NCBI GenBank assembly: GCA_963931445.1
Contig: OZ007016.1
Coordinates: 1,475,279 to 1,539,278, forward strand
Reading direction: 5' to 3'
From: an uncultured Clostridia bacterium
GTDB lineage: Bacteria; Bacillota; Clostridia; TANB77; CAG-508
Length of the DNA stretch: 64,000 nucleotides
In this document: positions 2,156 through 54,210 of the stretch, in pieces
How the letters are laid out: each line of letters opens with the position of its first letter
Numbering within the stretch: position 1 is the first letter of the stretch
Notes under the pieces: generated by a model
The model's database searches: none
What the model was told of the DNA's origin: nothing
Seen by the model: only the letters and a program-made list of their open reading frames with translations
Translations under genes and position numbers: made by a program

Positions 2156-2190
2156 ACTATCCCTCTTTCTTATTTAGTATAAACTGCATT

Positions 2191-3354: not shown

Positions 3355-3397
3355 TATTTATATCAATCCTTTCTTAAGTGTAATATTAATATTGGTA

Positions 3398-4375
3398 TTA
3401 TATTATACATAAACCAATTATACAAAATAGTAAGGTAATTATGCTAAATACTGATACTATTTTATTCTCCTTCCAACCTGATAATTCAAAGTGATGATGT
3501 ATTGGTGTCATTTTAAACACTCTATTTCCAGTTTTCTTAAAATAAGCAACCTGTATCATTACAGATACTGTTTCTATTATTGGTATTATAGCTATAATCA
3601 ATAATAATAATGGCATTTTTAAATATAATGCAATACCTGCTATTGCTCCACCTAACATAAGTGATCCTGTATCTCCCATCATAACTTTAGCTGGATTTAA
3701 GTTAAATAATAAAAATCCTAAACATGCTCCTATTAATATAGTTCCTACTGCTGTTACTTCTTTTATTCCTAATAAAATAGATATTACAGTTAAACATGTA
3801 ATTATTATTGTTGTAACACTAGTAGATAATCCATCTATTCCATCTGTTAAATTAATTGCATTTGTTGTTGCAAGCATTACTAATACTGCAAATGGTATGT
3901 ATAACCATATTGGAAGAATCAAATATTCTTTTATAAATGGTATATATATTTGTGTACCCATATTAAGTACTTTTACAAGTACTATTGTATAGGCTACTGA
4001 CACAACTAATAATCCTAACATTTTTGCCCTTGGGCTTAATCCTTTTGTATTTTTTAATATTAATTTTTTAAAATCATCTATAAAACCAATTAATCCAAAT
4101 CCTACTGAAACACCTATTAATGGTAAAATAGCATTAGCTATTTTAGGTTGATCTTTTGCAAAATCCATGTATAAAAATCCACCTACTGCTATTAGTACCA
4201 AAATCATTATTATTCCACCCATAGTTGGTGTTCCCTGCTTTTTCAAGTGTGATTGTGGACCTTCTTCTCTTTCAATTTGACCGACTTTTAGCTTTCTTAA
4301 AATTGGTACTATAATTAAAGATAATATTACACTTGCTAAAAAGGATAATAGTAATATTTTGTTTTGATATTGCAT
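3398..4375 (-). CDS. mraY: phospho-N-acetylmuramoyl-pentapeptide transferase
   Basis: Multi-TM protein with MraY motifs (DDxxK..LxPxxxK-like, HHHFE) in dcw context. Confidence 0.9.
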   Translation of the reverse strand: MQYQNKILLLSFLASVILSLIIVPILRKLKVGQIEREEGPQSHLKKQGTPTMGGIIMILVLIAVGGFLYMDFAKDQPKIANAILPLIGVSVGFGLIGFIDDFKKLILKNTKGLSPRAKMLGLLVVSVAYTIVLVKVLNMGTQIYIPFIKEYLILPIWLYIPFAVLVMLATTNAINLTDGIDGLSTSVTTIIITCLTVISILLGIKEVTAVGTILIGACLGFLLFNLNPAKVMMGDTGSLMLGGAIAGIALYLKMPLLLLIIAIIPIIETVSVMIQVAYFKKTGNRVFKMTPIHHHFELSGWKENKIVSVFSIITLLFCIIGLCII

Positions 4376-4403
4376 ATATTTTCCTCCTTTGTCTTTATTT
4401 ATT

Positions 4404-5897
4404 TTATTTCTTTTTATTTTCTACCATTTCATCTATTATTTTATTTACTATTAGGTTTTCATCAAATGGATATCTTTTTTTATTTATCTCTTGATATTGT
4501 TCATGACCTTTTCCTGCAAGAACAATTATATCTTTTTTGTTTGCCATGCTTATTGCTTTTTTTATTGCCTCTACTCTATCTACAATACATTCATATTTTC
4601 CATTTGTCTTTTTTGTTCCTTTTTCTATGTCCATTATTATATCTTCTGGTTTTTCAGTTCTAGGATTATCTGATGTAATAATTGTATAATCTGCTACTCT
4701 TCCTGAAGCCTCTCCCATCATTGGTCTTTTATTTTTATCTCTATCTCCACCACATCCAAATACTGAAATTACTCTACCTTTTGTATATATTTTTACAGAT
4801 GATAATATTTTTTCTAAACTTTCTGGTGTATGTGCATAATCAATCATTATTGTTAAACCTAATTTATTTTCTACAAGTTCACTTCTTCCTGGTACTCTTA
4901 TATTTTCTAATGCTTCTTTTATATTTTCACTTTTGCATCCAAATTGCATAGATACAAATATTGCAGCTAATGAATTATATACACTAAATCTTCCTGGTAT
5001 AGATACTTTTACCCTTTCGTTCTTATCTCCTAATTTTACTTTAAAATCCACATACTGATTTGTTACAGTAATATCTTTTGCTAATAAATCACAATGATTA
5101 TCTATTCCATATGTTGAAAATTGACATTCTGGTACAAGTTTTGGAATTGTTATAGAATATACATCATCTGCATTTATAAATCCTTTTTTGCACATTTTAA
5201 ACAATTTTACTTTTGAACTAAAATACTCTTCCATATCTTGATGCTCTTTGCTACTAATATGATCTTCTGCTAAATTTGTAAATACTCCTATATCAAAATC
5301 ACATCCTGCCACTCTTTCTAATTTTAAGCTTTGTGATGATACTTCCATTACAACTGCTTCGCATTTTTCTTCTAGCATTTTACTAAATATTTCTTGTAAT
5401 TTCAAACTTTCTGGTGTTGTATTTTCGTTATCTGCAATCTTCTTATCTCCTACATATGAAGCTACAGTTCCTATTAAGCCTACTTTTATTCCCTGTTTTT
5501 GCAATATGTCTCTTATCATGTATGTAGTAGTTGTTTTTCCCTTAGTTCCTGTAACCCCTATTAATTTCATTTTCTTTGAAGGATTTTTATAAAAATTGCA
5601 TGCTGCTATTGCTAAAGCATATCTTGTATCCTTTGTTAAAACTAAAACTATATCTTCTGGAAATTCTTTTATTTTATTTTTATCAAATTCATTTTCTTGA
5701 GCTAATATTACTTTTGCACCATTTTTTATTGCATCCATAATATGTTCATGTCCATTTGTTTCAAAGCCTTTTATTGCTACAAACATATCATTTTCTTCTA
5801 CATCTTTAGAATTATTTTTAATATTTTTAACATTTATATCTATATTGCCTTTTACCTTTAAATCTTCTAATCCTAATAGAATACTTTTTAAATCCAT
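4404..5897 (-). CDS. murE: UDP-MurNAc-L-Ala-D-Glu:meso-DAP ligase
   Basis: Mur ligase domains with P-loop GVTGTKGKTTTT and the DNPR motif specific for DAP-adding MurE. Confidence 0.9.
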   Translation of the reverse strand: MDLKSILLGLEDLKVKGNIDINVKNIKNNSKDVEENDMFVAIKGFETNGHEHIMDAIKNGAKVILAQENEFDKNKIKEFPEDIVLVLTKDTRYALAIAACNFYKNPSKKMKLIGVTGTKGKTTTTYMIRDILQKQGIKVGLIGTVASYVGDKKIADNENTTPESLKLQEIFSKMLEEKCEAVVMEVSSQSLKLERVAGCDFDIGVFTNLAEDHISSKEHQDMEEYFSSKVKLFKMCKKGFINADDVYSITIPKLVPECQFSTYGIDNHCDLLAKDITVTNQYVDFKVKLGDKNERVKVSIPGRFSVYNSLAAIFVSMQFGCKSENIKEALENIRVPGRSELVENKLGLTIMIDYAHTPESLEKILSSVKIYTKGRVISVFGCGGDRDKNKRPMMGEASGRVADYTIITSDNPRTEKPEDIIMDIEKGTKKTNGKYECIVDRVEAIKKAISMANKKDIIVLAGKGHEQYQEINKKRYPFDENLIVNKIIDEMVENKKK

Positions 5898-5996
5898 TCT
5901 ATAAATTCCCCTTTCTCAATTTTATAATATGCCGTTTACATTATATAACTAATTTTTTTTTTTGTATATAGTTTAACATTTTTTTCTTACTTATTT

Positions 5997-8144
5997 TTAA
6001 TATTCTACAATTATATTTGTATTTTCATATACTTTTATACCATCTTTTGGTATTTGATTTGTTATTATTTTTTCTGAAACATCATCTTCATTAATATTTT
6101 CATACTTTATTCCTAATTTCATTTCTTTTAATTTCTCTTTTGCTTCTGAAATAGTCATACCTATTAAATTTGGAGTTTCTACTTCTGTTCTTATATCTTC
6201 TTGTTTAATATTATCTTCTTGTATTTCTAAATATGGAAGTACCTCTCCTAAAACTTGTGAACCTATTGGCGCCGCTACACCTCCTCCTTGGTGTCCCCCC
6301 TCACCTGTAGGATTATATAAAGTTATTAAAACAACTACTTGTGGATCTGATATTGGAGCTACTCCAATAAATGATGTTACATATTTTCCTGTATTAACAC
6401 CATCTTCTGATGTTCCAGTTTTTCCCCCTACTAAATACCCTTGAACTTGTGCATTTTTTCCTGTTCCTTCTGCCACAACTGTTCCCATCATACTCAAAAC
6501 ATCACTAGCAGTTTCTTTTGAAATTACATTTTTTATTTCTTCTATTGGTATTTCTCTAACCTCTCCAGTTTGACTATCTATAATTTCTTTTACAATACGA
6601 GGTTTAACATATGTACCATTATTTGCTATTGTGCTTACTGCAGTTATCATTTGCAAAGGTGTTATTTCAAATCTCTGACCGAAAGAAATAGTTGCAAGTT
6701 CAATAGGTCCTACTTTTTCTTCTTTTAAAAATATGCTACTTGCTTCTCCTGGAAGATCTATTCCTGTTTTTCTTAATAGACCAAATTTTTCAAGATAATC
6801 ATAATATTTACTAACACCTATTTGCTGTCCTAATCCTATAAATACAGGATTGCATGAATTCATAAGTGCTTGCCTTAAACTTTCTGGTCCATGAGGATTA
6901 TAGTATCTCCAACAACTAATTCTAACACCAGCAATTGTTATTCCCCCAGTACAACAAAACTCACCTTCTTTATCTGTTGTAGTTATTCCTTCTTCTAATG
7001 CAGCTGATGCTGTAATTAGCTTAAATGTTGAACCTGGTTCATAAGTATCTGCTACTGCTTTGTTTCTCCATACTTTTTGCATTTCTTTTATCTGTTCAGT
7101 TTCAGATAAATTATTCCAATTTGGTTTTAATTCATCAATTATTGTTTCATAAGGAGTATTTAAATTGTAATCTGGATAACCAGCCATTGCTAAAATATCT
7201 CCAGTTTTCGGATTCATTACTATTATATTTCCACCATCTGTACATTTATTGTCTATACATGCTTCTTTTAAATATTTTTCTGCTATTCCTTGTATTGTCG
7301 CGTCTATACTTAATACTAAACTATTTCCATCTATTGCTGAAATATATTCTTCTCCTTCACCTTCTATTTCTCCTCCATTTGCATCTGTCACTTTTGTTAT
7401 TTTTCCTTTTTCTCCTTGAAGTTCTTCTTCATAAATTGCTTCAATTCCATCTAATCCTTGATTATCATAGCCACAGAATCCAATTACTTGTGATGCTAAA
7501 CTGTTATATGGATAATATCTTTTAGTATCTTCATCAATATTTATTCCAATTTCTATATTATTATCGCTCATCCAAATTCTCAATTCATCAGATTTATTTT
7601 TTTCTACTCTTTTAGCTATTGTTTCAATTGAACTATTTTTACTTACTTTTTTTAAAACCTTTTCATATTCCAAATTAAAAATATTTGCTAGAGCTCTTGC
7701 AACTTTTTCTTTATTTTCTTTTGCTATATTATTTGGATTTACAGTTATTGTATTTACAGTACTACTTACTGCTAATATATTTTTACCAGTTGCATCATAT
7801 ATTGTTCCTCTTTTAGGGCTTATGGCTCTATCCATACTCTGCTGTATTAATGCCATTTGGCTTAATTTATCTCCATCAATAAATTGAATCCATGCTATTC
7901 TTATTACAAATAATAATGAACCTATAATTGAAAAAGTTAATAAAATTAATAATCTTTTTCTTCTACTTTTATCACTATTCTTTTTTTCTATTTTATTTTT
8001 TTCCTGCTTAATTTCTTTTTCATATTTTTTATTTTTTCTATTTTTTATTTTCTTTTTTATTTTTTCTAAAGTTTCTCCTTTTGCTTTTTTTTCATTTAAT
8101 AATATTTTTTGTCTTGGTGTCATCTTTTTCATATATTTTCTCAT
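5997..8144 (-). CDS. class B penicillin-binding protein (PBP2B/SpoVD family) with C-terminal PASTA domain
   Basis: N-terminal TM anchor, PBP dimerisation domain, transpeptidase motifs (STFK, SxN, KTGT) and a PASTA domain; sits between ftsL and murE. Confidence 0.85.
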   Translation of the reverse strand: MRKYMKKMTPRQKILLNEKKAKGETLEKIKKKIKNRKNKKYEKEIKQEKNKIEKKNSDKSRRKRLLILLTFSIIGSLLFVIRIAWIQFIDGDKLSQMALIQQSMDRAISPKRGTIYDATGKNILAVSSTVNTITVNPNNIAKENKEKVARALANIFNLEYEKVLKKVSKNSSIETIAKRVEKNKSDELRIWMSDNNIEIGINIDEDTKRYYPYNSLASQVIGFCGYDNQGLDGIEAIYEEELQGEKGKITKVTDANGGEIEGEGEEYISAIDGNSLVLSIDATIQGIAEKYLKEACIDNKCTDGGNIIVMNPKTGDILAMAGYPDYNLNTPYETIIDELKPNWNNLSETEQIKEMQKVWRNKAVADTYEPGSTFKLITASAALEEGITTTDKEGEFCCTGGITIAGVRISCWRYYNPHGPESLRQALMNSCNPVFIGLGQQIGVSKYYDYLEKFGLLRKTGIDLPGEASSIFLKEEKVGPIELATISFGQRFEITPLQMITAVSTIANNGTYVKPRIVKEIIDSQTGEVREIPIEEIKNVISKETASDVLSMMGTVVAEGTGKNAQVQGYLVGGKTGTSEDGVNTGKYVTSFIGVAPISDPQVVVLITLYNPTGEGGHQGGGVAAPIGSQVLGEVLPYLEIQEDNIKQEDIRTEVETPNLIGMTISEAKEKLKEMKLGIKYENINEDDVSEKIITNQIPKDGIKVYENTNIIVEY

Positions 8145-8234
8145 GATTTTGTCCTTTCATAAAATAATTATATTAATTAATTTTATGAAAGAAAATAAAA
8201 AAAAGACTAAAATATATATATAATATTTCAGTCT

Positions 8235-8741
8235 TTATTTTCCAAAAATAAAATCTACTAATTCTTCAAACCAATTTTTTTCTTCTTCTAAAACCACTTC
8301 TTCACTTGCAGTTTCTATATAATCTTCTTTATCTAAACTAACATATATTTTTTGGCTATTATCTAATTTTTGCATTCCTAATTTTTGTTCTGCCATTTTT
8401 TCAATATTAGATAAATTCAAACTATTCTCTAAATTAACTTTTAATTGTTCATTTTCTTTTTCTATAGCTGCTAAATTAGATTTTAATTTTTCATTTGCAT
8501 TAAAATTTTCATTTATTAAAGAGTTTCTATAACCTATAACAAGTAAACTAGCAAATATTAAACATATATATGTTATTATTTTTATTTGGCTTTTAATTTG
8601 TTTTTTAGTATTAATACTTTTTTGTTTTTTACTAATTGATGAAGACTTTTTTTGATATTGTCTTTTTATTGGTTTATATTCTGTTTCTACTTTACGGGGG
8701 CTAGTTTCATATTGGTATTTACTATACCTATAATATGCCAT
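8235..8741 (-). CDS. ftsL: FtsL-like cell-division protein (single TM, coiled coil)
   Basis: Small basic protein with one TM and a coiled coil, placed between rsmH and the PBP gene. Confidence 0.55.
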   Translation of the reverse strand: MAYYRYSKYQYETSPRKVETEYKPIKRQYQKKSSSISKKQKSINTKKQIKSQIKIITYICLIFASLLVIGYRNSLINENFNANEKLKSNLAAIEKENEQLKVNLENSLNLSNIEKMAEQKLGMQKLDNSQKIYVSLDKEDYIETASEEVVLEEEKNWFEELVDFIFGK

Positions 8742-8773
8742 AAGTTATTTTCACCTCTTTTACTTAATATTTT

Positions 8774-9713
8774 TTACTCTTTTGTTAATTTTTCAAATAT
8801 TCTTAATTTAGCACTTTTACTTCTACTATTTTCTGTTTGTTCTTCTAAATTTGGCAATATTGGTTTTTTAGTTAAAATTTTTCCATATGATTTATAATTA
8901 CATACACAATAAGGTAAATCTTTTGGGCATGTACATCTTCCTTCTGCTTCTATAAAAGCTTCTTTTACAATTCTATCTTCTAAAGAATGAAATGTAATTA
9001 CAGCTAATCTTCCTTTTTCTTTTAATAATTTTATTGAATTTAATACAGTATTATATAATGGTTCTAATTCGTTATTAACTTCAATTCTAATAGCTTGAAA
9101 TGTTCTTTTAGCCGGATGTCCATCATTTTGCTTTGATTTTGGAATTGAATTTTTAATAATTTCTACTAATTGTTCTGTAGTTTCTATTTTTTTATTTATT
9201 CTTTGTTTACAAATATTTTTAGCAATTAACTTAGAAAATTTTTCTTCACCATATTTATATATAATATCTGCTAATCTTTCTTCTGAATATTCGTTTACTA
9301 CATCTTCTGCAGTTAATTTTTGAGTTTTGTCCATTCTCATATCTAGTTTAGAATTTCCAATATAGCTAAATCCTCTATTTACTTCATCTAATTGATATGA
9401 TGACACTCCTAAATCTAATAAAATTCCATCTACTTTTTCTATATTTATAGAAGATAATATTGTATATATCTCATCATGATTTCCATGAATATATTTAACA
9501 TTTTTGTATTTTTCTAATCTTTTCTTTGCCGCTCTTAATGCTTCTTCATCTCTATCTATTCCTATAAGTAAACCATTTTCAGATAGTCTTTTTATAATTT
9601 CTTCACTATGTCCTGCTCCTCCGAAGCGTTCCATCTACATATATTCCATCTGGATTTATGTTTAGTCCTTCTATTGTTTCATTTAATAATACTGGTTTAT
9701 GTTTAAACTCCAA
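8774..9713 (-). CDS. rsmH: 16S rRNA m4C1402 methyltransferase RsmH/MraW; apparent +1 frameshift near 9637
   Basis: The ORF from 9634 starts inside the conserved GGAGHSE motif. Upstream, a different frame encodes [30 protein letters not shown], the RsmH N-terminus, from TTG at 9711-9713 behind a GAGGTG RBS. One extra base splits the gene. Confidence 0.75.
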
Positions 9714-9807
9714 ATTGCACACCTCATAGTTAAAAAATTATTATAACACAAGCAGTTGGCATAACAAATATATACCAACTTGCTTGTTATTTGCTTACTA
9801 TATAATT

Positions 9808-10102
9808 TTATCTTTTGTTTAATTTTTCTTTTGTTCATTAATTACTTTTCTTTGGTAAATATTTATGTATAAACAATCAACATTTTATCTTTTGAGAATT
9901 AAAATATCTTTTGTTTAATTAAACTTTTTATTTTGATCTTTTGTTTAATTTTTCTTTAGTAAATAACATTTTTTATCTTTTGTTAAATTTTTTTCTTCTA
10001 TCTTTTGCATATTTAAATTTCTTCTTTAGTTTAATTTATTATCTTATCTTTTTGTAAACAAATGGGTTATCTTTTGTGTTTTCTAATTTTATCATTTGTA
10101 AT
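9808..10102. repeat. About 10 dispersed copies of TATCTTTTGT(TTAA) in the 400-bp mraZ-rsmH spacer
   Basis: Copies start near 9808, 9827, 9885, 9904, 9944, 9973, 9998, 10039, 10067 and 10089. Confidence 0.7.
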
Positions 10103-10120
10103 ATATAAACTTTTTTAAAG

Positions 10121-10552
10121 TTATATACCTAACATTGTCATATTTTCAGCAATTTCATCAGCTGAAATATTTTCATCACTATTGTATTTTTTCCATTTTT
10201 CTTTGTTCCAAATTTCAATTCTAGTACCTACACCGATTATTGCAACTTCTTTTTCCATTTCTGCATAATCTCTTAAGTTACTAGCAATTAAAAATCTACC
10301 TTGCTTATCTATTTCGCATTCTGTAGCTCCTGATAAGAAAAATCTTACAAAATCTCTTGCATTTTTGTTTGTAAGTGGAAGTGTTTTTAATTTTTCTTCA
10401 AAGTTTGTCCATTCATTTTGTGAAAATCCAAATAAGCACCCATCAAGTCCTTTAGTTATTATAAATTTTTCTCCTAAGCATTCTCTTAATTTAGCTGGCA
10501 TTATTAATCTGCCTTTAGCATCTAGAGAATGTTCATATTCACCGATAAGCAC
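10121..10552 (-). CDS. mraZ: transcriptional regulator MraZ
   Basis: 143 aa with a duplicated MraZ/SpoVT-AbrB domain; first gene of the dcw cluster. Confidence 0.9.
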
Positions 10553-16517: not shown

Positions 16518-18816
16518 TTATTCTTCTATCTCTTGTTTTAATACAACATTTATTACTGTTCCTTCTTCTACCTTTGTTCCTGCAGTTATATCTTGGCTTG
16601 TTATTTTTCCGCTTCCAGAATATTTTATATTTAAATTCTTATTTTTTAATTCTGCTTTTGCCTCTGATAAGTACATTCCTTTTAAATTAGGTACTGTTTG
16701 TGATATTCTTGTATCATCCTCTTCTGTATATAATTTTATAATAGAACCTTCTATTAGTTCTGTTCCTGCTACTGGCATTTGTTTACTTACAATACTATCT
16801 GACTTGCCTGAAGTACTACATTCAAATCCTAAATTTTCTAACATTTTTTGAGCTTCAGCTACAGTTTTATTTTCAACATTAGGTAATGAAATAGTTTCAG
16901 GGACTTCATCTTCTTCTGTAGTATCTGATGTAATTCCTAAATATGGTAAAACCTCTTTTAATATTTGAGCTACTACCGGTGCTGCAACTGTACTTCCGCT
17001 ATTATAATCTCCTTGTGGACCATATAATGTTACTAATACTACAATTTCTGGACTTTCTACAGGTGATATTCCTACAAATGAAGCTACATAACCTGCATCT
17101 TCATCTGATGGATCTGGCTCTGATGTTCCAGTTTTTCCTGCTATACTATAACCTTTAACTTGAGCATATCTTCCTGTACCACTGTCAACTACTGTTTCTA
17201 ACATGTCTAATAATGACTCTGATGTTTGTTTAGATATTACTTGTCTTACTTTTTCTGGTTCTATTGTTGTAATTGCTCCTGTATCTGTATTTTTTATTTC
17301 TTTTGCTATTCTAGGTTTCATTAATATTCCATCATTTGCAACAGCTGATACAGCTGAAATCATCTGTAATGGTGTTATTTTAAATCTTTGGCCAAATGAC
17401 ATTGTTGCAAGTTCAATGCTTCCACATCTTCTTCATTCCAAAATATACTTTGTGCTTCTTCTGAATTTCCACATCCCCATATATCTCCAAATCCTGTATT
17501 ATCAAAAAAATTAAATGCATCATAATATCTATATAATGTTTCTGCTCCTATTTTTTTGCCAAGTTGTATAAATGCTGGATTACAAGAATACTTTAGTGCA
17601 TCTCTTAAACTTAATGATCCATGTCCAGATTTATCTGAACACCAAATTGTAACTCCAGATACTTTTTCATAGCCTTTACAGGTATATACATTTGTTGTAT
17701 CAGCATCAGTGATTCCTTCTTCTAATCCTGCTGCTGCAGTTATTATTTTAAAAACTGAACCTGGCTCATATGTAGATGTAACTGCTCTATTATTCCATGT
17801 TTCTTGTTGCTTTTGATACTGTTCTTCTGCAGACATCTTTTTCCATTCTTTTTCATCTATAAAATCTAAAGTATATGGATCATTTAAATTATAATCTGGA
17901 TATGTAGCCATTGCCAAAATATCTCCAGTATTTGGCTTCATTATTATTACATTTCCACCATCTTTACATTTATTTTCTTCACAGGCTTGTTTTAAATATT
18001 TTTCTGCTATTTGTTGTATATTTGCATCTATTGTTAAGGTTATATCATTTCCATTTTGTGGTGCAATATATGTTTCATTTTCATATGGAATTAGATCTTG
18101 TACTGCGTCTTGAGCTGATGTAACTTTTCCAGGTGTTCCTGTTAAAATATCATTCCATTTTAATTCTAATCCCCATAATCCATAATTATCTGTACCACAA
18201 AATCCAATTAAATTTGAAGCTAAATTATTGTATGGATAATACCTTTTTGTATCTTCATCTATATTTATTCCACTATATATTTTATTTTCTTTCATCCATT
18301 CTTCTAACTTTTCTACTTTTTCATTTTCTACCTTTTTAGCTATTGTTACATTAGTACTATCACTTGATACTTTTTCTAATGTTTCATCATATTTTAATTC
18401 AAATATTTCTGAAAAAGCTTTTGCTACTTTTTCTTTTAATTCTTTTGTTTTTGTTTCATCAATATCTCCATCATCATTTTCTACTACTATTCTACTAGGA
18501 TCTACACTTATAGTATCTACTTGTGCACTTATAGCTAATGCTTTTCCTGTTGAATCATATATTGTTCCTCTTTTAGGACTAATTGTTTTACTTGCTGTTA
18601 ATTGTCTATGCATTTCTTCTTTTAGTTCAGCCCCTTGTACAATTTGTAACCAAGCTAATCTAAATATTAATATTAATAATACTACAAAAAAAGCAATTAA
18701 TATTCTAGCTATTCTTTCATTAATACTGCATATTTTTTTACTTTGCTAGATTTATTATTTTTTTCAAATTTATATACATTTGTTTTTTTATTATTTTTCA
18801 ACTTTTGTATCATCCT
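16518..18816 (-). CDS. second class B PBP (PBP2B/SpoVD paralog with PASTA domain); at least two single-base frameshifts
   Basis: It is split into 17375-18613 (N-terminal part) and 16518-17402 (C-terminal part). The junction EEDV|GSIELATMSFGQRF needs a 1-nt correction near 17415. The N-terminal TM region (MIQKL...RIARILIAFFVVLL) needs another near 18700. Confidence 0.7.
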
Positions 18817-24400: not shown

Positions 24401-24431
24401 TAAATAATATTTTATGTTAAGGAGGTATTTT

Positions 24432-26285
24432 ATGTGTGGTATTGTAGGGTACATTGGTACAAAAAAAGCTACACCAATATTAGTAGATGGTCTTTTATGT
24501 TTAGAATATAGAGGGTATGATTCCGCTGGAATTGCAACTTTAGAAAAAAATGAAATTAAGGTTATGAAAGATAAAGGAAGAGTAAGTAATTTATATAATT
24601 TAGATGGAATAAATACTTTAGAAGGAACTGTGGGAATAGCTCATACAAGATGGGCAACACATGGTAAACCATCTAAAGAAAATTCTCACCCCCATACTGA
24701 TAATAGTAATACTTTTGCAGTTGTGCATAATGGAATTATTGAAAATTATTCGGATTTACGAACTTTTTTAAGTTCAAAAGGTTATACTTTCTTTTCTCAA
24801 ACAGATACTGAAGTTATTCCTAATTTAATTCATTATTATTTTTACAATGGTTCTGTTTCTGTATTAAATGATAATAAAGAAAAATTATTAGGTGCTGTAA
24901 AATTGGCTATACAAGATTTAAAAGGTAGTTATGCTATAGAAGTTATTTCTCCTTTATGCCCTAATGAAATAATTGTTGTTAGAAAAGATAGTCCTCTTGT
25001 TATAGGAAAAGGAGAAAATGAAAATTATATAGCTTCTGATATTCCAGCTATATTAAAATATACTAAAAATTTCTATTTACTTGATGATAATGAATTTGCT
25101 GTAGTATCTACTAATACTATTAACTTTTTTGATAATACTTTAGAAGAACATAATAAGACTATTAAAAATATTGATTGGGATGCAAATGCTGCTGGAAAAG
25201 AAGGTTTTGATGATTACATGCTTAAAGAAATCTTTGAACAACCAACCGCAATAAGAGAAACTATTGGTTCTAGATTTAGTTTAGGAGAAAAATGTTCTTT
25301 TGATGACATCGAAATTTCTAAAGAATATTTAAATAATGTTAATAAAATTTATATAGTTGCATGTGGTACAGCTATGCATGCAGGTTTAACTGGAAAAACT
25401 ATACTTGAAAATCTTTGCCAAATTCCTACTGTGGTAGATATTGCATCTGAATTTAGATATAGAAATCCACTTATAGATGAGCAAACTTTATGCATATATA
25501 TTAGTCAATCTGGAGAAACAGCTGATACTATTGCAGCATTGAAACTTGCTAAACAAAAAGGTGCTAAAACTTTGGCTATTTCAAATGTTATAGGAAGTTC
25601 TATTACAAGAGAAGCTGATTATTCTATATACACTCATGCTGGACCTGAAATTGCTGTTGCTTCTACTAAAGCTTATTCTTCTCAAGTAGTTTTAATTGCA
25701 ATTTTGGCAGTATATTTTGCTGAAATATTAGAACGCTGTGATAAAAAAATTATTGAAAGATTAAAGGAAGATATTATAGATCTTCCATCTAAAGTAGAAA
25801 AAATATTGGATGATACTGAAATAATTAAAGAATTTGCAAAAAAAGTATATACAGAAAAAGATATGTTCTTTTTAGGAAGAGGAACAGATTATAATGTTGC
25901 TTTAGAAGGTTCTTTAAAATTAAAAGAAATATCTTACATTCATTCAGAAGCATATGCTGCTGGAGAATTGAAACATGGTCCTATAGCACTTATTGAAAAT
26001 GATGTAACAGTAATTGGAATTATTACTGATTCAAACCTAGTGGAAAAATCTATTAGTAATATTCAAGAAGTTGTTACAAGAGGTGCTAAAACATTAATTA
26101 TTACTAATCAAATACTTCCTAATAGTAATTTTGATTTTATAATCAATATACCAAAAACTAATTTTTTAATTTCACCTATTCTTTCTGTAATACCTATGCA
26201 ACTTATTGCATATTATATTGCTAAATTTAAAGGTTTAGATGTAGATAAACCTAGAAACCTAGCAAAATCTGTAACAGTAGAATAA
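24432..26285 (+). CDS. glmS: glutamine--fructose-6-phosphate aminotransferase
   Basis: N-terminal MCGIVGY with catalytic Cys2 and two SIS domains; AGGAGG RBS. Confidence 0.95.
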   Translation: MCGIVGYIGTKKATPILVDGLLCLEYRGYDSAGIATLEKNEIKVMKDKGRVSNLYNLDGINTLEGTVGIAHTRWATHGKPSKENSHPHTDNSNTFAVVHNGIIENYSDLRTFLSSKGYTFFSQTDTEVIPNLIHYYFYNGSVSVLNDNKEKLLGAVKLAIQDLKGSYAIEVISPLCPNEIIVVRKDSPLVIGKGENENYIASDIPAILKYTKNFYLLDDNEFAVVSTNTINFFDNTLEEHNKTIKNIDWDANAAGKEGFDDYMLKEIFEQPTAIRETIGSRFSLGEKCSFDDIEISKEYLNNVNKIYIVACGTAMHAGLTGKTILENLCQIPTVVDIASEFRYRNPLIDEQTLCIYISQSGETADTIAALKLAKQKGAKTLAISNVIGSSITREADYSIYTHAGPEIAVASTKAYSSQVVLIAILAVYFAEILERCDKKIIERLKEDIIDLPSKVEKILDDTEIIKEFAKKVYTEKDMFFLGRGTDYNVALEGSLKLKEISYIHSEAYAAGELKHGPIALIENDVTVIGIITDSNLVEKSISNIQEVVTRGAKTLIITNQILPNSNFDFIINIPKTNFLISPILSVIPMQLIAYYIAKFKGLDVDKPRNLAKSVTVE

Positions 26286-28388: not shown

Positions 28389-29669
28389 ATGATAGACATT
28401 AAGTTTTTAAGAGAAAATCCAGATTTAGTAAGAGAAAATATTAAGAAAAAATTCCAAAATCACAAACTTATTTTAGTAGATGAAATTTTAGAATTAGATA
28501 AAAAAAATAGAGAAACTAAATTAAATGGTGATGAACTTAGAATGAAAAGAAATTCTTTAAGTTCTGAAATTGGAAATTTAATAAGAAATGGAAAAAAAGA
28601 TGAAGCAGAATCTATAAAGTCACAAGTTCAAAAAATAAACATTGAATTAGAAAAAAATGAAAAACTCGAATTAGAATATTCAAATGCAATCACTGAGAAA
28701 ATGATGAAAATTCCTAATATGATACATGAATCTGTACCAATTGGTGAAGATGATAGTAAAAATGTAGAAATAGAAAAATTTGGTGAACCTATAGTTCCTG
28801 ATTATGAAATACCATATCATGCAGATATTATGGAAAATTTAAATGGATTAGACTTAGATTCTGCGCGTAGAGTTGCTGGAAATGGTTTTTACTATTTAAT
28901 GGGAAATATTGCAAGACTTCATTCAGCAATACTTTCTTACGCTAGAGATTTTATGATTAATAAAGGTTTTACTTATTGTATTCCACCATATATGATTCGT
29001 AGTGATGTTGTTACAGGTGTTATGAGTTTTGAAGAAATGGATGCAATGATGTATAAAATTGAAGGTGAAGATTTATACTTAATTGGAACCAGTGAACATT
29101 CAATGATTGGAAAATTTAAAGGTCAAATTCTTCAAAAATCTAATATGCCATATACTATGACATCTTATTCACCATGTTTTAGAAAAGAAAAAGGTGCTCA
29201 TGGAATAGAAGAGCGTGGTATTTATAGAATACACCAATTTGAAAAACAAGAAATGATAGTTGTATGCGAACCTGAAGATAGTTGGAAATGGTATGATAAA
29301 TTATGGTCATATACAGTAGAATTATTTAGGAGTATGGACATTCCTGTTAGAACTCTTGAATGTTGCAGTGGAGATTTAGCTGATTTAAAAGCTAAAAGTT
29401 GTGATGTTGAAGCTTGGAGTCCTAGACAAAAAAAATATTTTGAAGTTGGAAGTTGTTCTAATTTAACTGATGCACAAGCGAGAAGATTAGGAATTAGAAT
29501 TAAAGGTGAGAAAGGAAATTATTTTGCACATACTTTAAATAATACTGTTGTGGCTCCACCTAGAATGCTAATTGCTTTTTTAGAAAATAATTACAATAAA
29601 GATGGAAGTATCAATATTCCAGAAGTACTTCGCCCATATATGGGTGGAATTTGTAAATTAACACCTTAG
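28389..29669 (+). CDS. serS: serine--tRNA ligase
   Basis: N-terminal coiled coil and class II aaRS core. Confidence 0.95.
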   Translation: MIDIKFLRENPDLVRENIKKKFQNHKLILVDEILELDKKNRETKLNGDELRMKRNSLSSEIGNLIRNGKKDEAESIKSQVQKINIELEKNEKLELEYSNAITEKMMKIPNMIHESVPIGEDDSKNVEIEKFGEPIVPDYEIPYHADIMENLNGLDLDSARRVAGNGFYYLMGNIARLHSAILSYARDFMINKGFTYCIPPYMIRSDVVTGVMSFEEMDAMMYKIEGEDLYLIGTSEHSMIGKFKGQILQKSNMPYTMTSYSPCFRKEKGAHGIEERGIYRIHQFEKQEMIVVCEPEDSWKWYDKLWSYTVELFRSMDIPVRTLECCSGDLADLKAKSCDVEAWSPRQKKYFEVGSCSNLTDAQARRLGIRIKGEKGNYFAHTLNNTVVAPPRMLIAFLENNYNKDGSINIPEVLRPYMGGICKLTP

Positions 29670-46552: not shown

Positions 46553-47401
46553 TTATACTATATTTTTACTAATAATTTTTTTAATGTATTTTGCTGCTGT
46601 TTTTGGTGTTTCTCTTCCTGGAATTCCTAAAGCAACTATTAAATTCATTTTTTCTTTTTGTGCATATTCTTTATCTACTCCACCTGGGCTTGATGCTAAA
46701 TCTATTATTAAGGTATTTTTATCTATTAATTTTAATTCTTTTTTGCCTAAAATTATATATGGAACTGTATTAATTATAATATCAAATTTATTTAAAAAAT
46801 TTTGCAATTCATCATATTTTAGTGGAAAATATCTTTTCTCTCTTATCCAAGCTAAATCACTATCTTTTCTAGCTGTACAATATATATTTGCCCCGAGTGC
46901 ACTGAATCTATCACATAATATTTTTCCAATTTTTCCAAATCCACATATCAATACATTACTTTCGTGAATTGTTTCTTCTCTTTCATTAATTGCAATTTTT
47001 ATTGTTCCTTCAACTGTTGGAATAGCATTTAAAATTGTTAGTTCTTCATCTTCTAATAAATCAATATTATTTATTGTTTTATCATCATAATAATCCTTAG
47101 GAATTTTTCCTGCTATAAAATATTTATTTTTTATTAATTCTTTTAATTTTTGTACTTTTATTTCTTTATCTGAAAATGGTGTATTTACATTTATTCCATC
47201 TTTTGTAAATGGTATACTACTTATTATATATTTTGATGAACTAATGGCTGTTTCTAAATTTGCACAATTTATTATATTTTTTTCTTCTTTGTTATTAAAA
47301 TATTTTTCAATTCCAAATGTATACACTTTATTATTTTCATTTGCATATAGCTGTACTAATCTAATATTTCTTAAATCTCCACCTATTATACATATCTCCA
47401 T
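46553..47401 (-). CDS. dpaA: dipicolinate synthase subunit A (SpoVFA family); no adjacent dpaB
   Basis: Strong similarity to SpoVFA (NAIPTVEGTI, ICGFGKIGK, LIIDLASSPGG..KEYA). Confidence 0.75.
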   Translation of the reverse strand: MEICIIGGDLRNIRLVQLYANENNKVYTFGIEKYFNNKEEKNIINCANLETAISSSKYIISSIPFTKDGINVNTPFSDKEIKVQKLKELIKNKYFIAGKIPKDYYDDKTINNIDLLEDEELTILNAIPTVEGTIKIAINEREETIHESNVLICGFGKIGKILCDRFSALGANIYCTARKDSDLAWIREKRYFPLKYDELQNFLNKFDIIINTVPYIILGKKELKLIDKNTLIIDLASSPGGVDKEYAQKEKMNLIVALGIPGRETPKTAAKYIKKIISKNIV

Positions 47402-48747: not shown

Positions 48748-49278
48748 TTAAAATTCAAAATTTTTTTCGTACCTTTTCATACATTTTTCTATTATTTTTT
48801 CTGCTTCTTCTCTTCCTAACATTCTATCTACAGTTGTTGTTTTTCCTTCTAATTGTTTATATACTTCAAAAAAATGTTTTATTTCATCAGATATATGGTT
48901 TGGCAATGCTGAAATATCATTATAGCCATTTAAATATGGATCTTTTTTAGATATTGCAATTATCTTTTCATCTTCTTCTCCACAATCATTCATAATAAGA
49001 ACTCCTATTGGATAACATTCAACTAAAGTAAGAGGTTGAATTTCTTCATTGCATAAAATTAATACATCTAGTGGATCATTATCTTCTGCATAAGTTCTTG
49101 GAATAAATCCATAATTTGTTGGATAATGTGTAGCAGTATAAAGTACCCTATCTAATTTCAACATACCTGTTTCTTTATCTAATTCATATTTGTTTTTTCC
49201 ACCTTTTGAGATTTCTACTACACTTACAAAATCACTTTTGGTAATTCTTTCTTTTTTTATATCATGCCATATATTCAT
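48748..49278 (-). CDS. ppa: inorganic pyrophosphatase (family I)
   Basis: DNDPLDVLIL motif. Confidence 0.85.
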   Translation of the reverse strand: MNIWHDIKKERITKSDFVSVVEISKGGKNKYELDKETGMLKLDRVLYTATHYPTNYGFIPRTYAEDNDPLDVLILCNEEIQPLTLVECYPIGVLIMNDCGEEDEKIIAISKKDPYLNGYNDISALPNHISDEIKHFFEVYKQLEGKTTTVDRMLGREEAEKIIEKCMKRYEKNFEF

Positions 49279-49423
49279 TTTTTCTTAATTTCCTTTCTTT
49301 TATAACTTATATTATTTTAATTTAAATTGCAAAATTTGTCTAGTAGTTTAATAAATATTAGTAATATTTCAAATTAGATAAAATATAAATGAACTTTAAG
49401 GAATCTCCCTAAAGTTCACGATT

Positions 49424-51754
49424 TTAATTATATAATTTTTCTTCAGCCTTTTTTACTGCTTCTCTTTCATCCCAATAATATTGAACGCCTTTTATTTCTT
49501 GATATTGTTCATGTCCTTTTCCTATTAAAAGAATAATGTCTCCTTCTAAAGCATTTTTCATAGCGTATTCTATTGCTTCTTGTCTATCTTTTATTATAAT
49601 ATATTTTCCACTACTTTTATTTAATCCAATTATTATATCATTATTAATAGATTCAATTTCTTCAAAACGAGGATTATCTTCAGTAAGAATAGTTAAACCC
49701 GCATATTTTCCTGATATTTCTCCCATATCATATCTTCTGTCTTTTGCTCTATTGCCTCCACCACCAAAAATGCACACAATTCTTTTTGGTTTGTATTCCA
49801 TTATTGTTTCCATTAAATTTGTCATTTCATCTTCATTGTGAGCATAATCTATTATTAGCTTGTATTTTTCATTAGATACTGCAAGTTCCATTCTTCCTTT
49901 AACATAAGCTGATTCTAATGCCTTTTTCATTGATAATACTTTTATTCCTAATTCATTTGCTATTGTTATAGCGCATAATGAATTATATACTGAAAATCTA
50001 CCTGGAATTGCCACTTCAAATTTATCATTTATTTTTCCTGTTGTATCAAATCCCATTCCCAAAAATTTTTCATTCATAATAAACTTAATGTCTTTAGCTC
50101 TCATATCTACATTTTCAGAATTTATTCCGAATTTTATTATTTCACATGTGTAATTTTCAATAATATTTTGCCAATTTTTATCATCTACATTTATTATTCC
50201 TTTTTTGCATTTTTGAAATAATAAACTCTTACATTTCATATATTCTTCAAAACTTTCATGTTCGTTTGGCCCTATATGTTCGTTAGATATATTTGTAAAT
50301 ACTCCATAATCGAATATAAATCCATCTACTCTATGCATTTTTAATCCTTGAGAAGATACCTCCATAATTGCATATTTACAACCTTCTTCAACCATTTCTC
50401 TAAATAATCTCTGTACATCATAATTTTCAGGTGTTGTATTATGTAGTGATATTTTTCTTTTTCCTATGTATGCACCTATAGTTCCAATTAATCCAGCTTT
50501 TTCTCCATTTTCTTCAATCATCTTTTTTAGAATTGTTGAAGTAGATGTTTTACCTGCTGTTCCTGTTATTCCAACAGTAATTAGATCTTTTGATGGATAT
50601 TTAAAATATGCTGCAGATATTTCTGCCATAGCTTGTCTTGATGATTTTACTTTTAATACTGTTACATCCTCATTTATTTCTACATCTCTTTCTATAATAA
50701 TAACTTTTGCACCTTTTTTTATTGCATCTGGTATATATTTATGCGAATCTGCAGTAAAACCAACCTTTGCTATATATAAATCATCTTTTTCTACTTTATT
50801 TGAATTATCCTTTATATCTGATATATCTACATCTAGACTTCCTTTTATAAGTTCATAATCCACATTTTCCACAAGTTTTCTTAAATTTGTTATTCTATAT
50901 TTTTTTATAATATCATCCACATCAATTTCAGATTCAAATACAGTATGTGATGGTCCTTTCATAAACATTTTACCTGTTTTCTCATCCCAATTTGTTTCCA
51001 AAATTCCACCTATTTGGTGTACACTTACCTTTCTATCACATCTTCCTGTTAAAACTGCTGCAACTGTTGCCGTACAGCATCCTGTTCCACAACCTATTGT
51101 TTCTCCAGTTCCTCTTTCCCATTCTCTCATTTTTATATTGTTTCTGTCTATAACTTGTGCAAATGTAACATTGGTTTTATTCGGAAATATATCTGTTTTA
51201 TACTCTATAGCTTTTCCATATTTCTCTACATCAAAATTATCTACATCATCTATAAACATTACACAATGAGGATTTCCCCATGAAACTGCAGTTATTTTAA
51301 ATGTCTTGTCAAGTATTTTTACCTCTTGTTCTACAAATTCTGGTAATTTTGTATTTACAGGGATTAGACTAGTGTCTAATACAGGTTTGCCAATATTAGC
51401 TTCAATATTAACTGCTTTTCCATTTTCTACAGTTAATTTAACATGTTGAATTCCACCTAAAGTTTCTATTGTTAATTCTTCTTTATCAGTCAATTTATGA
51501 TCATATACATATTTACTTAAAGATCTTAAAGCGTTCCCACACATTTCTCCTTCTGTTCCATCCGGATTAAACATTCTCATTCTGAAATCTGCAACATCTG
51601 ATTTGCAAATTAAAACTAATCCATCAGAACCTACTCCAAAATGTCTATCACTTATATATTTCGCAAGTTCATGTACATTATTTATTTTTTGATTAATTGC
51701 ATCTATATATACATAGTCATTACCATAAGCTTGCATTTTTGTAAATTTTGTCAT
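49424..51754 (-). CDS. fusion protein: diaminopimelate epimerase (DapF) N-terminal plus MurE-type meso-DAP-adding Mur ligase C-terminal
   Basis: The DapF signature (YGNDYVYID, GNPHCVMF, CGTGCC) runs directly, with no stop or new start, into a MurE N-domain and P-loop GITGTAGKTST ending in DNPR. AAGGAGAG RBS lies at the MTKFTKMQ start. Confidence 0.7.
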   Translation of the reverse strand: MTKFTKMQAYGNDYVYIDAINQKINNVHELAKYISDRHFGVGSDGLVLICKSDVADFRMRMFNPDGTEGEMCGNALRSLSKYVYDHKLTDKEELTIETLGGIQHVKLTVENGKAVNIEANIGKPVLDTSLIPVNTKLPEFVEQEVKILDKTFKITAVSWGNPHCVMFIDDVDNFDVEKYGKAIEYKTDIFPNKTNVTFAQVIDRNNIKMREWERGTGETIGCGTGCCTATVAAVLTGRCDRKVSVHQIGGILETNWDEKTGKMFMKGPSHTVFESEIDVDDIIKKYRITNLRKLVENVDYELIKGSLDVDISDIKDNSNKVEKDDLYIAKVGFTADSHKYIPDAIKKGAKVIIIERDVEINEDVTVLKVKSSRQAMAEISAAYFKYPSKDLITVGITGTAGKTSTSTILKKMIEENGEKAGLIGTIGAYIGKRKISLHNTTPENYDVQRLFREMVEEGCKYAIMEVSSQGLKMHRVDGFIFDYGVFTNISNEHIGPNEHESFEEYMKCKSLLFQKCKKGIINVDDKNWQNIIENYTCEIIKFGINSENVDMRAKDIKFIMNEKFLGMGFDTTGKINDKFEVAIPGRFSVYNSLCAITIANELGIKVLSMKKALESAYVKGRMELAVSNEKYKLIIDYAHNEDEMTNLMETIMEYKPKRIVCIFGGGGNRAKDRRYDMGEISGKYAGLTILTEDNPRFEEIESINNDIIIGLNKSSGKYIIIKDRQEAIEYAMKNALEGDIILLIGKGHEQYQEIKGVQYYWDEREAVKKAEEKLYN

Positions 51755-51881
51755 AACTTTTACTCTCCTTATATAAAGTTTTTTGTGCATTTTTAAAATT
51801 CATTAGTGCAAAGTATATATAAAATATTTTAATTCAAAATATTTTATATATACTTTGCACCTAATATTTAAATGCTTTGAC

Positions 51882-53060: not shown

Positions 53061-53235
53061 GTTTATTACCTCAGTTTCTAAATATTATAAACAGTATATT
53101 CTTAATTAAGAATATAAGCCTGTTGGTTTAAACATATCGTTATTATACACTAATTTTTGAAAATAGTACAGCTTTTTTATATTTTTTCACCAAAAAAGGA
53201 ACCCTAATGGATTCCTTTCTTGGTGAATAGATTCT

Positions 53236-53738
53236 CTACTCACTTCGTAACGCTTCTACTGGATCTTTTTTACTTGCCATCTTTGCTGGAATTAAACCTG
53301 CAATTACTGTAAGTAGCATACTAATTATAACAAGAGCTATTCCTCTCACATCTATTATCGTAGATACCGAACTCATCATTGTTCCTACTAAATCTGTATA
53401 TGTTATAACATTTTCTTCTTTATTTTTATTTCTCTGTTCCTCATTATATTCTTCTATATATGAAGCAATTTGCTCTTTTGCATCAAAATCTTTTGGATAT
53501 ATATTTATAGAACTTGGATTATCTATATCTACTACTCCTAATTTTTCTAAGTTTCCTTCATATGTAGCATTTGCATTTTCTGTATATTGATTCATTAATT
53601 TTGCATTCCATTTAATAAAGACATAATTAATGCTATACCAATTATTCCTATACTACCTGCAAATGATGTAAGAAAAGTTCTTCCTTTTTTAGTCATTAAA
53701 TTGTTTAGACTAAGTACTTTCCTTTCCTTTAACAAGAA
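53236..53738 (-). pseudogene. FtsX-like ABC permease remnant (only TM1 and the C-terminal TM); A-run frameshift near 53600
   Basis: N-terminus ..KKGRTFLTSFAGSIGIIGIALIM and C-terminus ..IAGLIPAKMASKKDPVEALRSE are typical MacB/FtsX ends, but only about 170 aa lie between them. Confidence 0.4.
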
Positions 53739-54171: not shown

Positions 54172-54210
54172 ACAAAAAGACTAGGTCTGGACACCTAGTC
54201 TTTTTTTACT
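54172..54210. terminator. Bidirectional terminator flanked by 28-bp direct repeats
   Basis: AAAAAGACTAGGTCTGGACACCTAGTCTTTTTTT; the repeat CATGAAAAGTTTATTTTGCAATTGCTA lies at 54098 and 54210. Confidence 0.7.

Follow-up and report, generated by a model that had tools for sequence, protein, structure and literature searches.

A conserved in-frame DapF-MurE chimera of gut Clostridia, derived from an operon that pairs both genes with a Cys/Met-metabolism PLP enzyme

The DNA analysed here (the window; 64,000 nucleotides of an uncultured Clostridia bacterium, positions 1,475,279 to 1,539,278 of contig OZ007016.1 in assembly GCA_963931445.1) carries on its minus strand a gene in which a complete diaminopimelate (DAP) epimerase, DapF, continues without interruption into a complete Mur ligase of the MurE type (Table 1). 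The gene occupies a single uninterrupted open reading frame (ORF) at 49424..51790, encoding 788 amino acids (aa) when counted from its first ATG. We take the ATG at 51754 as the real start, because a Shine-Dalgarno (SD) sequence, AAGGAGAG, stands 8 nt before it and because homologs have 776-781 aa, in nearly all cases 776; the coding sequence (CDS) then comprises 776 aa and a stop. This agrees with the continuous frame of 777 codons described in a first-pass annotation made from the letters alone, and the motifs quoted there (YGNDYVYID, GNPHCVMF, CGTGCC, GPSHTVFESEI, GITGTAGKTST and DNPR) are all found in the translation. Pfam recognises DAP_epimerase followed by the Mur_ligase N, M and C domains, and in an AlphaFold2 model (mean predicted local distance difference test score, pLDDT, 87.4; predicted template modelling score, pTM, 0.71) both folds are confident, with a pLDDT of about 70-81 for the linker between them. 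A Foldseek search with this model found no solved chain spanning both halves, and structures of MurE and of DapF matched it separately. A scan for sigma-70 promoters gave 32 sites where 30.6 were expected by chance, i.e. no excess.

The proposal that a complete DapF and a complete MurE share one frame is borne out by the curated NCBIfam equivalog models, whose cut-offs both halves exceed. For the DapF half, TIGR00652 scores 265.4 bits (cut-off 114.65) over residues 15-289 of the 788-aa frame, and PF01678 gives an E-value of 7e-53. Alignment to the enzymes of Bacillus anthracis (2otn) and Anabaena (9mro) shows both catalytic cysteines, within EMCGNAL and IGCGTGCC, and 58 fused proteins show no variation at N12, G45, N63, C72-G-N74, N161, N195, E213-R214 and C222. 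By motif, we take the equivalents in the Haemophilus influenzae enzyme to be C73, C217, N11, N64, N157, N190, E208 and R209. The chimera has an invariant Gly at the position of H. influenzae Gln44. In the model, residues 2-277 form a pseudo-symmetric, two-lobed alpha/beta fold, which Foldseek matches to 9mro, 2otn and 4ijz at target-normalised TM-scores (TMt) of 0.81-0.89, the Anabaena enzyme being the best.

The C-terminal half belongs with the ligases that add meso-DAP. The meso-DAP MurE model NF001126 scores 490 bits on the chimera (cut-off 373) and TIGR01085 428 bits (cut-off 257), while the L-Lys ligase model NF010628 remains below its cut-off (344 versus 536 bits). The P-loop GITGTAGKTST, K509, D693-N-P-R696 and G745-K-G-H-E749 align to MurE of Escherichia coli, Thermotoga maritima and Mycobacterium thermoresistibile; K509 falls on the carbamylated Lys of the E. 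coli enzyme and DNPR on its DDNPR. Foldseek places this half at TMt 0.75-0.86 with 8g6p, 2xja, 4bub and 1e8c, as a three-domain Mur ligase fold. The loss of catalytic residues from the C-terminal domain, which the first-pass annotation had named as a reason to abandon the idea, is not seen, as these residues and all other catalytic and substrate-binding residues of both halves are invariant in the alignment of 58 fused proteins. Comparison with seven relatives by the Nei-Gojobori method gave dN/dS ratios of 0.02-0.10 for the DapF half, 0.07-0.13 for the MurE half and 0.10-0.34 for the linker, values that are approximate since dS is 0.6-1.5. Both halves are thus under strong purifying selection.

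The origin of the chimera can be read from its nearest unfused relatives, which carry an adjacent dapF (285 aa) and murE (492 aa); their MurE shares about 70% identity with the fused half, and their synteny is otherwise the same. In one of these loci, L033, the junction reads '...IDVSNVIK-TAG-aaacatgaaaagggggaaaca-ATG-KNLRKILENVEYE', with a 21-nt spacer that includes an SD, where the window has '...IDVDDIIK-KYRIT-NLRKLVENVDYE'. The ancestral stop, SD and initiator ATG have therefore been replaced by five in-frame codons, and neither an SD nor an ATG for a separate MurE remains at the window junction. Linkers differ in length and sequence among the fused homologs (KKANRVKK, GRARK and others), and two distant fused proteins, P0104 and P0105, keep a relic Met at the junction and may represent independent fusion events. 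Taken together, the comparison shows that, in one lineage of gut Clostridia with small, GC-poor genomes, neighbouring dapF and murE genes gave rise to the chimera. An A7 run in the A-rich junction and other frameshifted genes in the window could arouse the suspicion that an indel merged two genes, or that one half is a decaying pseudogene; this reading is effectively refuted, as independent assemblies from many samples, including a closed HiFi chromosome, are all fused through differing linkers that lack the homopolymer, the start signals of a separate MurE are gone, and both halves are selectively maintained with invariant catalytic residues. The same assemblies settle the in-frame junction and, without resequencing, the concern over indels at 50900-51000 that had been raised at the outset.

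The suggestion that orthologs be examined for fusion could be taken up as well. A search of 5.8 billion proteins recovered more than 100 distinct clusters at 90% identity, all 769-786 aa long, of the same architecture and ranging from 99% to 52% identity, and in a scan of one genome per species the fused gene was present in about 25 species-level metagenome-assembled genomes (MAGs) labelled uncultured Clostridia or Clostridium sp.; sister lineages are unfused. The carriers are uncultured gut Clostridia with genomes of about 1.7 Mb and about 25-30% GC, among them the closed 1.70-Mb HiFi chromosome OZ006978.1. Among 1.84 billion representatives at 50% identity, scanned exhaustively with HMMER, there was a single full-length fused one, P0093; the other long matches in that scan were Mur-Mur tandems or unrelated run-ons, none with a DAP-epimerase domain. 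With one cluster at 50% identity yet more than 100 clusters of fused homologs, the chimera thus combines abundance in gut metagenomes with a narrow phylogenetic range. The conserved in-frame fusion itself is secure.

The chimera does not lie in the division and cell wall (dcw) cluster, where MurE is typically, if not by strict definition, encoded. It is located about 44 kb away, behind a gene for a pyridoxal 5'-phosphate (PLP) enzyme, and the dcw place is held by another, stand-alone MurE, intact between a class B penicillin-binding protein (PBP) and MraY. This copy had been recognised in the first-pass annotation as a second DNPR-type MurE, and it reaches 564 bits on NF001126. Relatives retain its dcw context and keep it at 83-99% identity in more than 120 clusters, with an identity profile across the clade that is the same as that of the chimera; hence the two MurEs of the window show parallel conservation in relatives. 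Yet another MurE paralog of Lachnospiraceae sits in a recJ-murE-priA-def-fmt context (L027 5965-7470; L107 4875-6458; L112 4947-6455). These loci had been taken for dcw-type comparison loci, an assignment that we rejected on account of that context; as neither DapF nor a PLP enzyme accompanies them, they remain useful for comparison. A literature search on MurE paralogs matched only unrelated mitochondrial papers.

Immediately upstream of the chimera, the PLP enzyme is a member of the Cys/Met-metabolism family that includes cystathionine gamma-lyase (CGL), cystathionine gamma-synthase (CGS) and cystathionine beta-lyase (CBL). Its best NCBIfam matches are MccB-type CGL and CGS, every one below the equivalog cut-off, and its best matches in the Protein Data Bank (PDB) are 7d7o (MccB-type cystathionine gamma-lyase/homocysteine desulfhydrase) and 4l0o (Helicobacter pylori cystathionine gamma-synthase). 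By tblastn synteny, all fused loci with upstream sequence have this gene directly 5' of the chimera. The unfused dapF-murE pair is likewise immediately preceded by it in the sister lineage, in a 49%-GC 'Roseburia sp.' MAG and in the cultured species Roseburia inulinivorans. In the 'Roseburia sp.' MAG (L026), the PLP, dapF and murE genes are spaced by 6-7 nt, which indicates translational coupling.

We extended this comparison by scanning metagenomes with an alignment of the MurEs of this gene group (hereafter operon-type), which added 80 loci with GC contents of 27-55%, and by clustering all MurEs at 85% identity into 23 clusters; counts for the operon type are restricted to loci with at least 2.3 kb of upstream sequence. 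The order PLP enzyme, DapF, MurE was found in 17/17 operon-type clusters over that whole GC range, with DapF adjacent in 93/93 loci and the PLP gene in 92/93. Both genes were absent from four MurE clusters (6 loci), which are the recJ-priA paralog described above. The independent count is the 17 clusters rather than the 93 loci, because the retrieval patterns were derived from MurE and many loci come from the same species. The fusion is thus a derived form of an older, conserved operon of a Cys/Met PLP enzyme, DapF and MurE. This operon appears to be undescribed so far, and to be a more interesting lead than the fusion itself.

Several features set the proteins of the operon apart. The PLP enzymes of the window and of four further loci (L026, L033, L036 and L037) share an N-terminal extension of about 17 residues, MKNFSNYxD[YF]DxKE[ND]L, which MccB (7d7o) is without. 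The operon-type MurEs share the variant motifs DYAHNED (canonically DYAHTPD/E) and GGGGNRAKxRRYDMGE (canonically GCGGDRDKxKRPxMG). We sought to assign the reaction of the PLP enzyme from its specificity residues and made no assignment: the residue before Y-[ST]-R is N, D or A, never the Glu of cystathionine gamma-lyases, and the Glu of AESLGG is Gly in some lineages. A clean split between operon-type and housekeeping MurEs was likewise rejected. In a neighbour-joining (NJ) tree, the Lachnospiraceae recJ-priA MurEs are closer to the Roseburia operon-type MurEs than the dcw MurE of the window is, so that these housekeeping copies nest near the Roseburia operon copies, and the bootstrap support for the split is 3/100. 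For this reason, we do not claim an ancient, dedicated MurE paralog.

A divergent AraC-family regulator, with a cupin ligand domain and a helix-turn-helix, precedes the PLP gene in 35/40 long Roseburia-type loci and is absent from the clade of the window. Its position beside the operon suggests that the unfused Roseburia-type operon is conditionally expressed and inducible by a small molecule. In the window, the spacer between the PLP gene and the chimera contains a perfect hairpin, and relatives (e.g. L001, L005, L006, L015 and L021) have hairpins with 11-28-nt arms in the same spacer but of unrelated sequence, such that the structure recurs and the sequence does not; the hairpin of the window may serve as an attenuator between the two cistrons, stabilise the RNA or act as an operator. 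We rejected control of the module by a riboswitch or T-box. Rfam at gathering thresholds, applied to the window and four loci, and a permissive scan of 51700-54400 found nothing upstream of the PLP gene, and the T-box and glmS ribozyme that the window does contain belong to serS and glmS. A family I inorganic pyrophosphatase (PPase) follows the module in low-GC lineages, with a 17-nt gap after murE in L033, and a non-homologous CBS-DHH family II PPase is found upstream in 24/40 of the long Roseburia-type loci (L026 2128-3783; L037 2928-4583). Mur ligases release inorganic phosphate and not pyrophosphate.

What reaction sequence might this module carry out? We lean, with modest confidence, towards the chimera as a bifunctional enzyme that takes LL-DAP to meso-DAP and on to UDP-MurNAc-tripeptide. 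Judged from homology, the N-terminal domain would act as a PLP-independent two-cysteine epimerase that yields the meso (D,L) form from an L,L-diamino-dicarboxylic acid, for which LL-2,6-diaminopimelate is the likeliest candidate; the C-terminal domain would act as an ATP-dependent Mur ligase joining the meso amino acid to UDP-MurNAc-L-Ala-D-Glu to give UDP-MurNAc-tripeptide. The fusion would enforce 1:1 co-production of the activities that make and use the meso amino acid and keep them close to each other, and the chimera would provide a MurE route parallel to that of the canonical dcw MurE. The PLP partner might then reflect co-regulated sulfur or aspartate-family metabolism, or be a C-S lyase clearing away thioethers that resemble DAP. 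Substrate channelling, which the fusion had initially been thought to imply, is a different matter: it is unsupported, because the attachment point of DapF is the N-terminal, UDP-binding end of MurE and because the unfused operon evidently works in sister lineages and in Roseburia, and it is co-translation at 1:1 and proximity that the data support.

Three observations weigh against the bifunctional DAP enzyme. The strictly conserved PLP partner has no reason to be there under a canonical role in DAP metabolism, and the dcw MurE carries the same DNPR signature, so that a second DAP ligase looks redundant. Furthermore, genome annotation in one study has Roseburia making meso-DAP by the dehydrogenase (Ddh) branch, for which DapF is not needed, and there only R. 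inulinivorans within the genus is annotated with additional genes of an 'alternative branch' (PMC7478625); this would leave the operon DapF with no evident DAP-related function in the genus. The window contains no dapA, dapB, dapL, ddh or lysA, which at 64 kb is uninformative on the pathway of the whole genome.

These points have led us to weigh a thioether pathway, which we regard as possible, if distinctly less probable than the DAP route. Here, the PLP enzyme would make L,L-lanthionine from two cysteines or L-cystathionine from activated homoserine and cysteine, DapF would epimerise the product and the operon-type MurE would ligate it, perhaps conditionally, giving a lanthionine- or cystathionine-containing stem peptide beside the DAP-type route of the second MurE. 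To our knowledge, lanthionine and cystathionine are the only L,L-diamino-dicarboxylates made by transsulfuration-family PLP enzymes, and the only DAP surrogates for DapF and MurE. The constant association of the PLP gene with dapF and murE across the operon-type clusters and its absence from the other paralog, the translational coupling in L026, the dedicated AraC regulator of the Roseburia-type loci, and the subfamily-specific PLP extension and MurE motifs are all in line with such a pathway, as is the reported Ddh branch of Roseburia, and the peptidoglycan chemotype of this genus is listed as undetermined (PMC11382707). Biochemical precedent exists for each step. Enzymes of the cystathionine gamma-lyase family condense two cysteines to lanthionine (PMC5308258); purified DapF enzymes with Gly at the Gln44 position (Anabaena and Arabidopsis) epimerise L,L-lanthionine as fast as LL-DAP, which a Gln44 enzyme barely does (PMC12039745), and the chimera has the invariant Gly of this class and the Anabaena enzyme as its best structural match; and for the DNPR-type MurEs of E. 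coli and Anabaena, D,L-lanthionine is a substrate of ligation comparable to DAP (PMC12681378).

Other evidence argues against a thioether product. Fusobacterium nucleatum, the only known lanthionine user, has a CysK-type synthase of another PLP fold, and the protein that resembles DapF in this species proved to be a histidine racemase (PMC11602996), an illustration that same-fold relatives of DapF may take other substrates. The two positions that tune PLP-enzyme specificity vary across the operon family (N/D/A and E/G), which is odd for a single fixed reaction, and the operon-type MurEs are not a cleanly separate clade. A Gly-type DapF and a DNPR-type MurE are, moreover, normal in DAP-using Firmicutes, and thus permit the thioether route without being diagnostic of it. 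The broader proposal, that PLP-DapF-MurE is a self-contained natural pathway for a thioether DAP analogue in the stem peptide of abundant gut Clostridia, including R. inulinivorans, with the chimera as its most integrated form, is a shade more doubtful still. The idea of a dedicated pathway raised in the first-pass annotation accordingly survives in part: a modified stem peptide has gained circumstantial support from the conserved operon, whereas a role in the spore cortex has lost ground, with no dpaB, decay of the dpaA-like gene and non-sporulation contexts.

It is improbable, in our view, that the PLP enzyme instead serves as a guard, a C-S lyase that would destroy lanthionine and cystathionine arising as by-products of gut H2S and cysteine metabolism, preventing their misincorporation while the module delivers DAP. 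The family does include cystathionine beta- and gamma-lyases, with MccB-type lyases among the best matches, and since DapF and MurE homologs accept lanthionine the look-alike problem exists (PMC12681378, PMC12039745). The PLP-first gene order, however, fits supply as well as guarding. The selective need for a guard is also less than clear, given that E. coli is reported, in work of Mengin-Lecreulx from 1994, to tolerate lanthionine-containing peptidoglycan.

Even less probable, and very unlikely overall, is that the chimera provides a sporulation-specific MurE route for the spore cortex while the dcw MurE serves vegetative growth. Such a division of labour has a parallel in Lysinibacillus sphaericus, where a sporulation-specific DAP-adding activity builds a cortex unlike the Lys-type vegetative wall, and the window has a dpaA-like gene about 2 kb downstream of the chimera as well as SpoVD/SpoVE-like genes. 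Against this, the dpaA-like gene barely passes one model and lacks an adjoining dpaB, and many relatives have it split or truncated; a terminator parts the chimera from the downstream genes; the Roseburia-type operons have the AraC regulator or a pyrophosphatase on one side, LepA or unrelated genes on the other, and no sporulation genes as neighbours; and both MurEs are DNPR-type, with no Lys/DAP dichotomy evident.

As one polypeptide that combines a Mur ligase with a cell-wall enzyme and recurs in independent genomes, the protein qualifies as a Mur chimera. A 2023 survey, which excluded proteins of unidentified species, described MurE-MurF, MurC-Ddl, MurC-MurB, MurG-MurC, MurD-FtsW and MraY-MurG fusions and makes no mention of DapF or any epimerase (PMC10214165), and our literature search did not find the term 'DapF-MurE'. 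Like the surveyed chimeras, e.g. MurE-MurF of Bordetella pertussis (PDB 8F5D), the present fusion joins a precursor ligase to the enzyme of a neighbouring step, from adjacent genes and with a linker that is short or absent, and for that group the gains have been proposed to lie in stoichiometry, stability and proximity, and not in any proven channelling or hand-over (PMC10214165). It departs from them in that the partner, at the N-terminus of MurE, is an amino-acid-supply enzyme from outside the Mur/dcw set, and in that the gene lies outside dcw and coexists with an unfused dcw MurE.

Taken separately, the halves resemble well-studied enzymes. Stand-alone DapF (B. anthracis 2OTN; Anabaena 9MRO; H. 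influenzae 1GQZ/2GKE) has the same two-lobed fold, catalytic cysteines and all DAP-contacting residues; in the chimera, the C-terminus of DapF instead runs on into MurE, and the active site is of the Gly type, a class that tolerates lanthionine in vitro (PMC12039745). The meso-DAP MurEs of E. coli (1E8C), Mycobacterium tuberculosis (2WTZ/2XJA) and M. thermoresistibile (8G6P) share the three-domain fold, P-loop, Lys at the carbamylated position, DNPR and GKGHE with the chimera, and differ from it in lacking the operon-type variant motifs, the non-dcw gene and the N-terminal DapF. A comparison can also be drawn with DapF of Chlamydia trachomatis, a DAP epimerase and glutamate racemase which, in a reduced genome, likewise does double duty in the supply of peptidoglycan precursors (PMC5885031). 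The Chlamydia enzyme has two activities in one domain, whereas here two catalytic domains share one polypeptide, and the chimera scores only 100 bits on NF038284 (cut-off 350).

Two further systems bear on the thioether route. In the meso-lanthionine pathway of F. nucleatum, a PLP enzyme makes lanthionine from cysteine and a DNPR-type MurE installs the meso form, a likeness that holds only if a thioether is indeed the product. The steps are linked there by neither operon nor fusion, and the CysK-type synthase is a fold II enzyme (PMC11602996), whereas the PLP enzyme of the operon belongs to the PF01053 gamma-family of fold type I. This lowers the case for membership in a Fusobacterium-type system, but not the possibility of a similar way of working. 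In engineered E. coli, a transsulfuration PLP enzyme, DapF and MurE sufficed for a working lanthionine/cystathionine wall (Richaud et al., 1993; Mengin-Lecreulx et al., 1994), according to PMC12039745 and PMC12681378. That was a laboratory construct of housekeeping enzymes, while the present case is a natural, conserved operon with two of its genes fused in one clade. The construct reportedly relied on metB overexpression in a metC background.

One further MurE fusion was encountered, P0404 (L122 541-3090; 849 aa), in which a meso-DAP-type MurE (372 bits on NF001126) is joined to a PatB-family C-S lyase without its first approximately 60 profile positions. It could be an assembly chimera or else connect MurE a second time, through a non-homologous partner, to cystathionine/lanthionine chemistry. 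For the guard reading it is weak evidence, and we do not rely on it as independent support, since one sample yielded this singleton, on a single 3.9-kb contig, and the lyase in it is truncated.

The DapF-MurE protein constitutes a new class among natural Mur chimeras, the first to tie an amino-acid-supply enzyme to the ligase that uses its product. As such it bears on the debate whether the cytoplasmic enzymes of peptidoglycan synthesis act as complexes, and it offers a ready construct for studying the kinetics of proximity. It also points to an unrecognised and widely conserved operon of gut Clostridia, which public annotation presents as three ordinary housekeeping genes and which coexists with another MurE and, in Roseburia, also with a reported DapF-free Ddh route (PMC7478625). 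Should the operon prove to make a thioether, this would be the first lanthionine/cystathionine-type wall outside Fusobacteria and the first genetically defined lanthionine epimerase step. It would change assumptions about which muropeptides reach host NOD1 from dominant butyrate producers, and gut commensals would then be able to switch a NOD1-relevant muropeptide residue under an AraC-type regulator. As R. inulinivorans is a cultured host of the unfused operon, the question is directly testable.

Table 1. Features of the DapF-MurE locus, its operon and the related genes of the window; coordinates are positions of the window unless a locus is named
Feature	Position	Strand	Basis and remarks
DapF-MurE chimera CDS	49424..51754	-	single ORF; SD and homolog lengths; Pfam/NCBIfam domains; AlphaFold2 model
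DapF domain, residues 1-278	50921..51754	-	TIGR00652; alignment to 2otn and 9mro; invariant residues; dN/dS
Junction linker K285-Y-R-I-T289	50888..50902	-	window DNA versus unfused L033 junction
MurE domain (putative UDP-MurNAc-L-Ala-D-Glu:meso-diamino-acid ligase), residues 290-776	49427..50887	-	NF001126; structure alignment; Foldseek; dN/dS
Shine-Dalgarno AAGGAGAG of chimera	51763..51770	-	direct sequence reading
Intrinsic terminator closing the chimera transcription unit	49389..49419	-	14-bp stem followed by T-run
Cys/Met-metabolism PLP enzyme (CGL/CGS/CBL family), 392 aa	51882..53060	-	PF01053; first gene of module
Perfect palindrome/hairpin, 25-nt arms, 5-nt loop, 100% complementary	51806..51860	.	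repeat search; in 127-nt spacer between PLP gene and chimera
Second, stand-alone MurE	4404..5897	-	NF001126 564 bits; DNPR; 42% identical to MurE half of chimera
dcw cluster: MraZ, RsmH, FtsL-like, class B PBP, MurE, MraY, FtsW/SpoVE, MurG	1040..10552	-	NCBIfam and ORF list; MraZ and FtsL-like by eye from translations
Family I inorganic pyrophosphatase	48748..49278	-	NCBIfam/Pfam PF00719; linkage uncertain
dpaA-like gene	46553..47401	-	NF006162 270 bits versus 261; TIGR02853 208 bits versus 320
AraC-family regulator, Roseburia-type	L026 3786-4631; L037 4624-5475	-	divergent from operon

Among the remaining genes, the two class B PBPs and the dpaA listed in the first-pass annotation are present, but the second PBP is frameshifted and the dpaA-like gene has no adjoining dpaB. 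The PBP gene at 16518..18613 (minus strand) is broken near 17400 by a frameshift into two ORFs (412 aa and 294 aa) with a 28-nt overlap, and is either a pseudogene or the product of an assembly indel. The gene next to the dpaA-like gene is bacA/uppP. Orthologs of the dpaA-like gene are split by frameshifts or reduced to about 190-220 aa in many relatives (L012, L016, L017, L025 and L030-L035); the dpaA-like gene looks to be eroding, which calls dipicolinate synthesis in these organisms into question. Upstream of the PLP gene, a 119-aa C-terminal piece of an FtsX-type ABC permease (53236-53595, minus strand; by eye) and a 97-aa piece of an HlyIII-family protein that has 224 aa in relatives (54330-54623, minus strand) are further signs of pseudogenisation or indel errors.

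Elsewhere in the window, two elements exceed the Rfam gathering thresholds: a T-box leader (28140-28344, plus strand) upstream of the seryl-tRNA synthetase gene (28389..29669) and a glmS ribozyme (24225-24382, plus strand) upstream of glmS (24414..26285). The minus strand additionally carries a type IV pilus cluster (36494-45498; PilB/PilT/PilC-like proteins, prepilin peptidase, pilins and a PilM-like protein, by eye from translations), a ctsR-mcsA-mcsB-clpC stress operon (56404-60963), whose Pfam families are seen in relatives, and a pair of ORFs at 61860-63893 that, by eye only, resembles an IS21-type istA/istB transposase.

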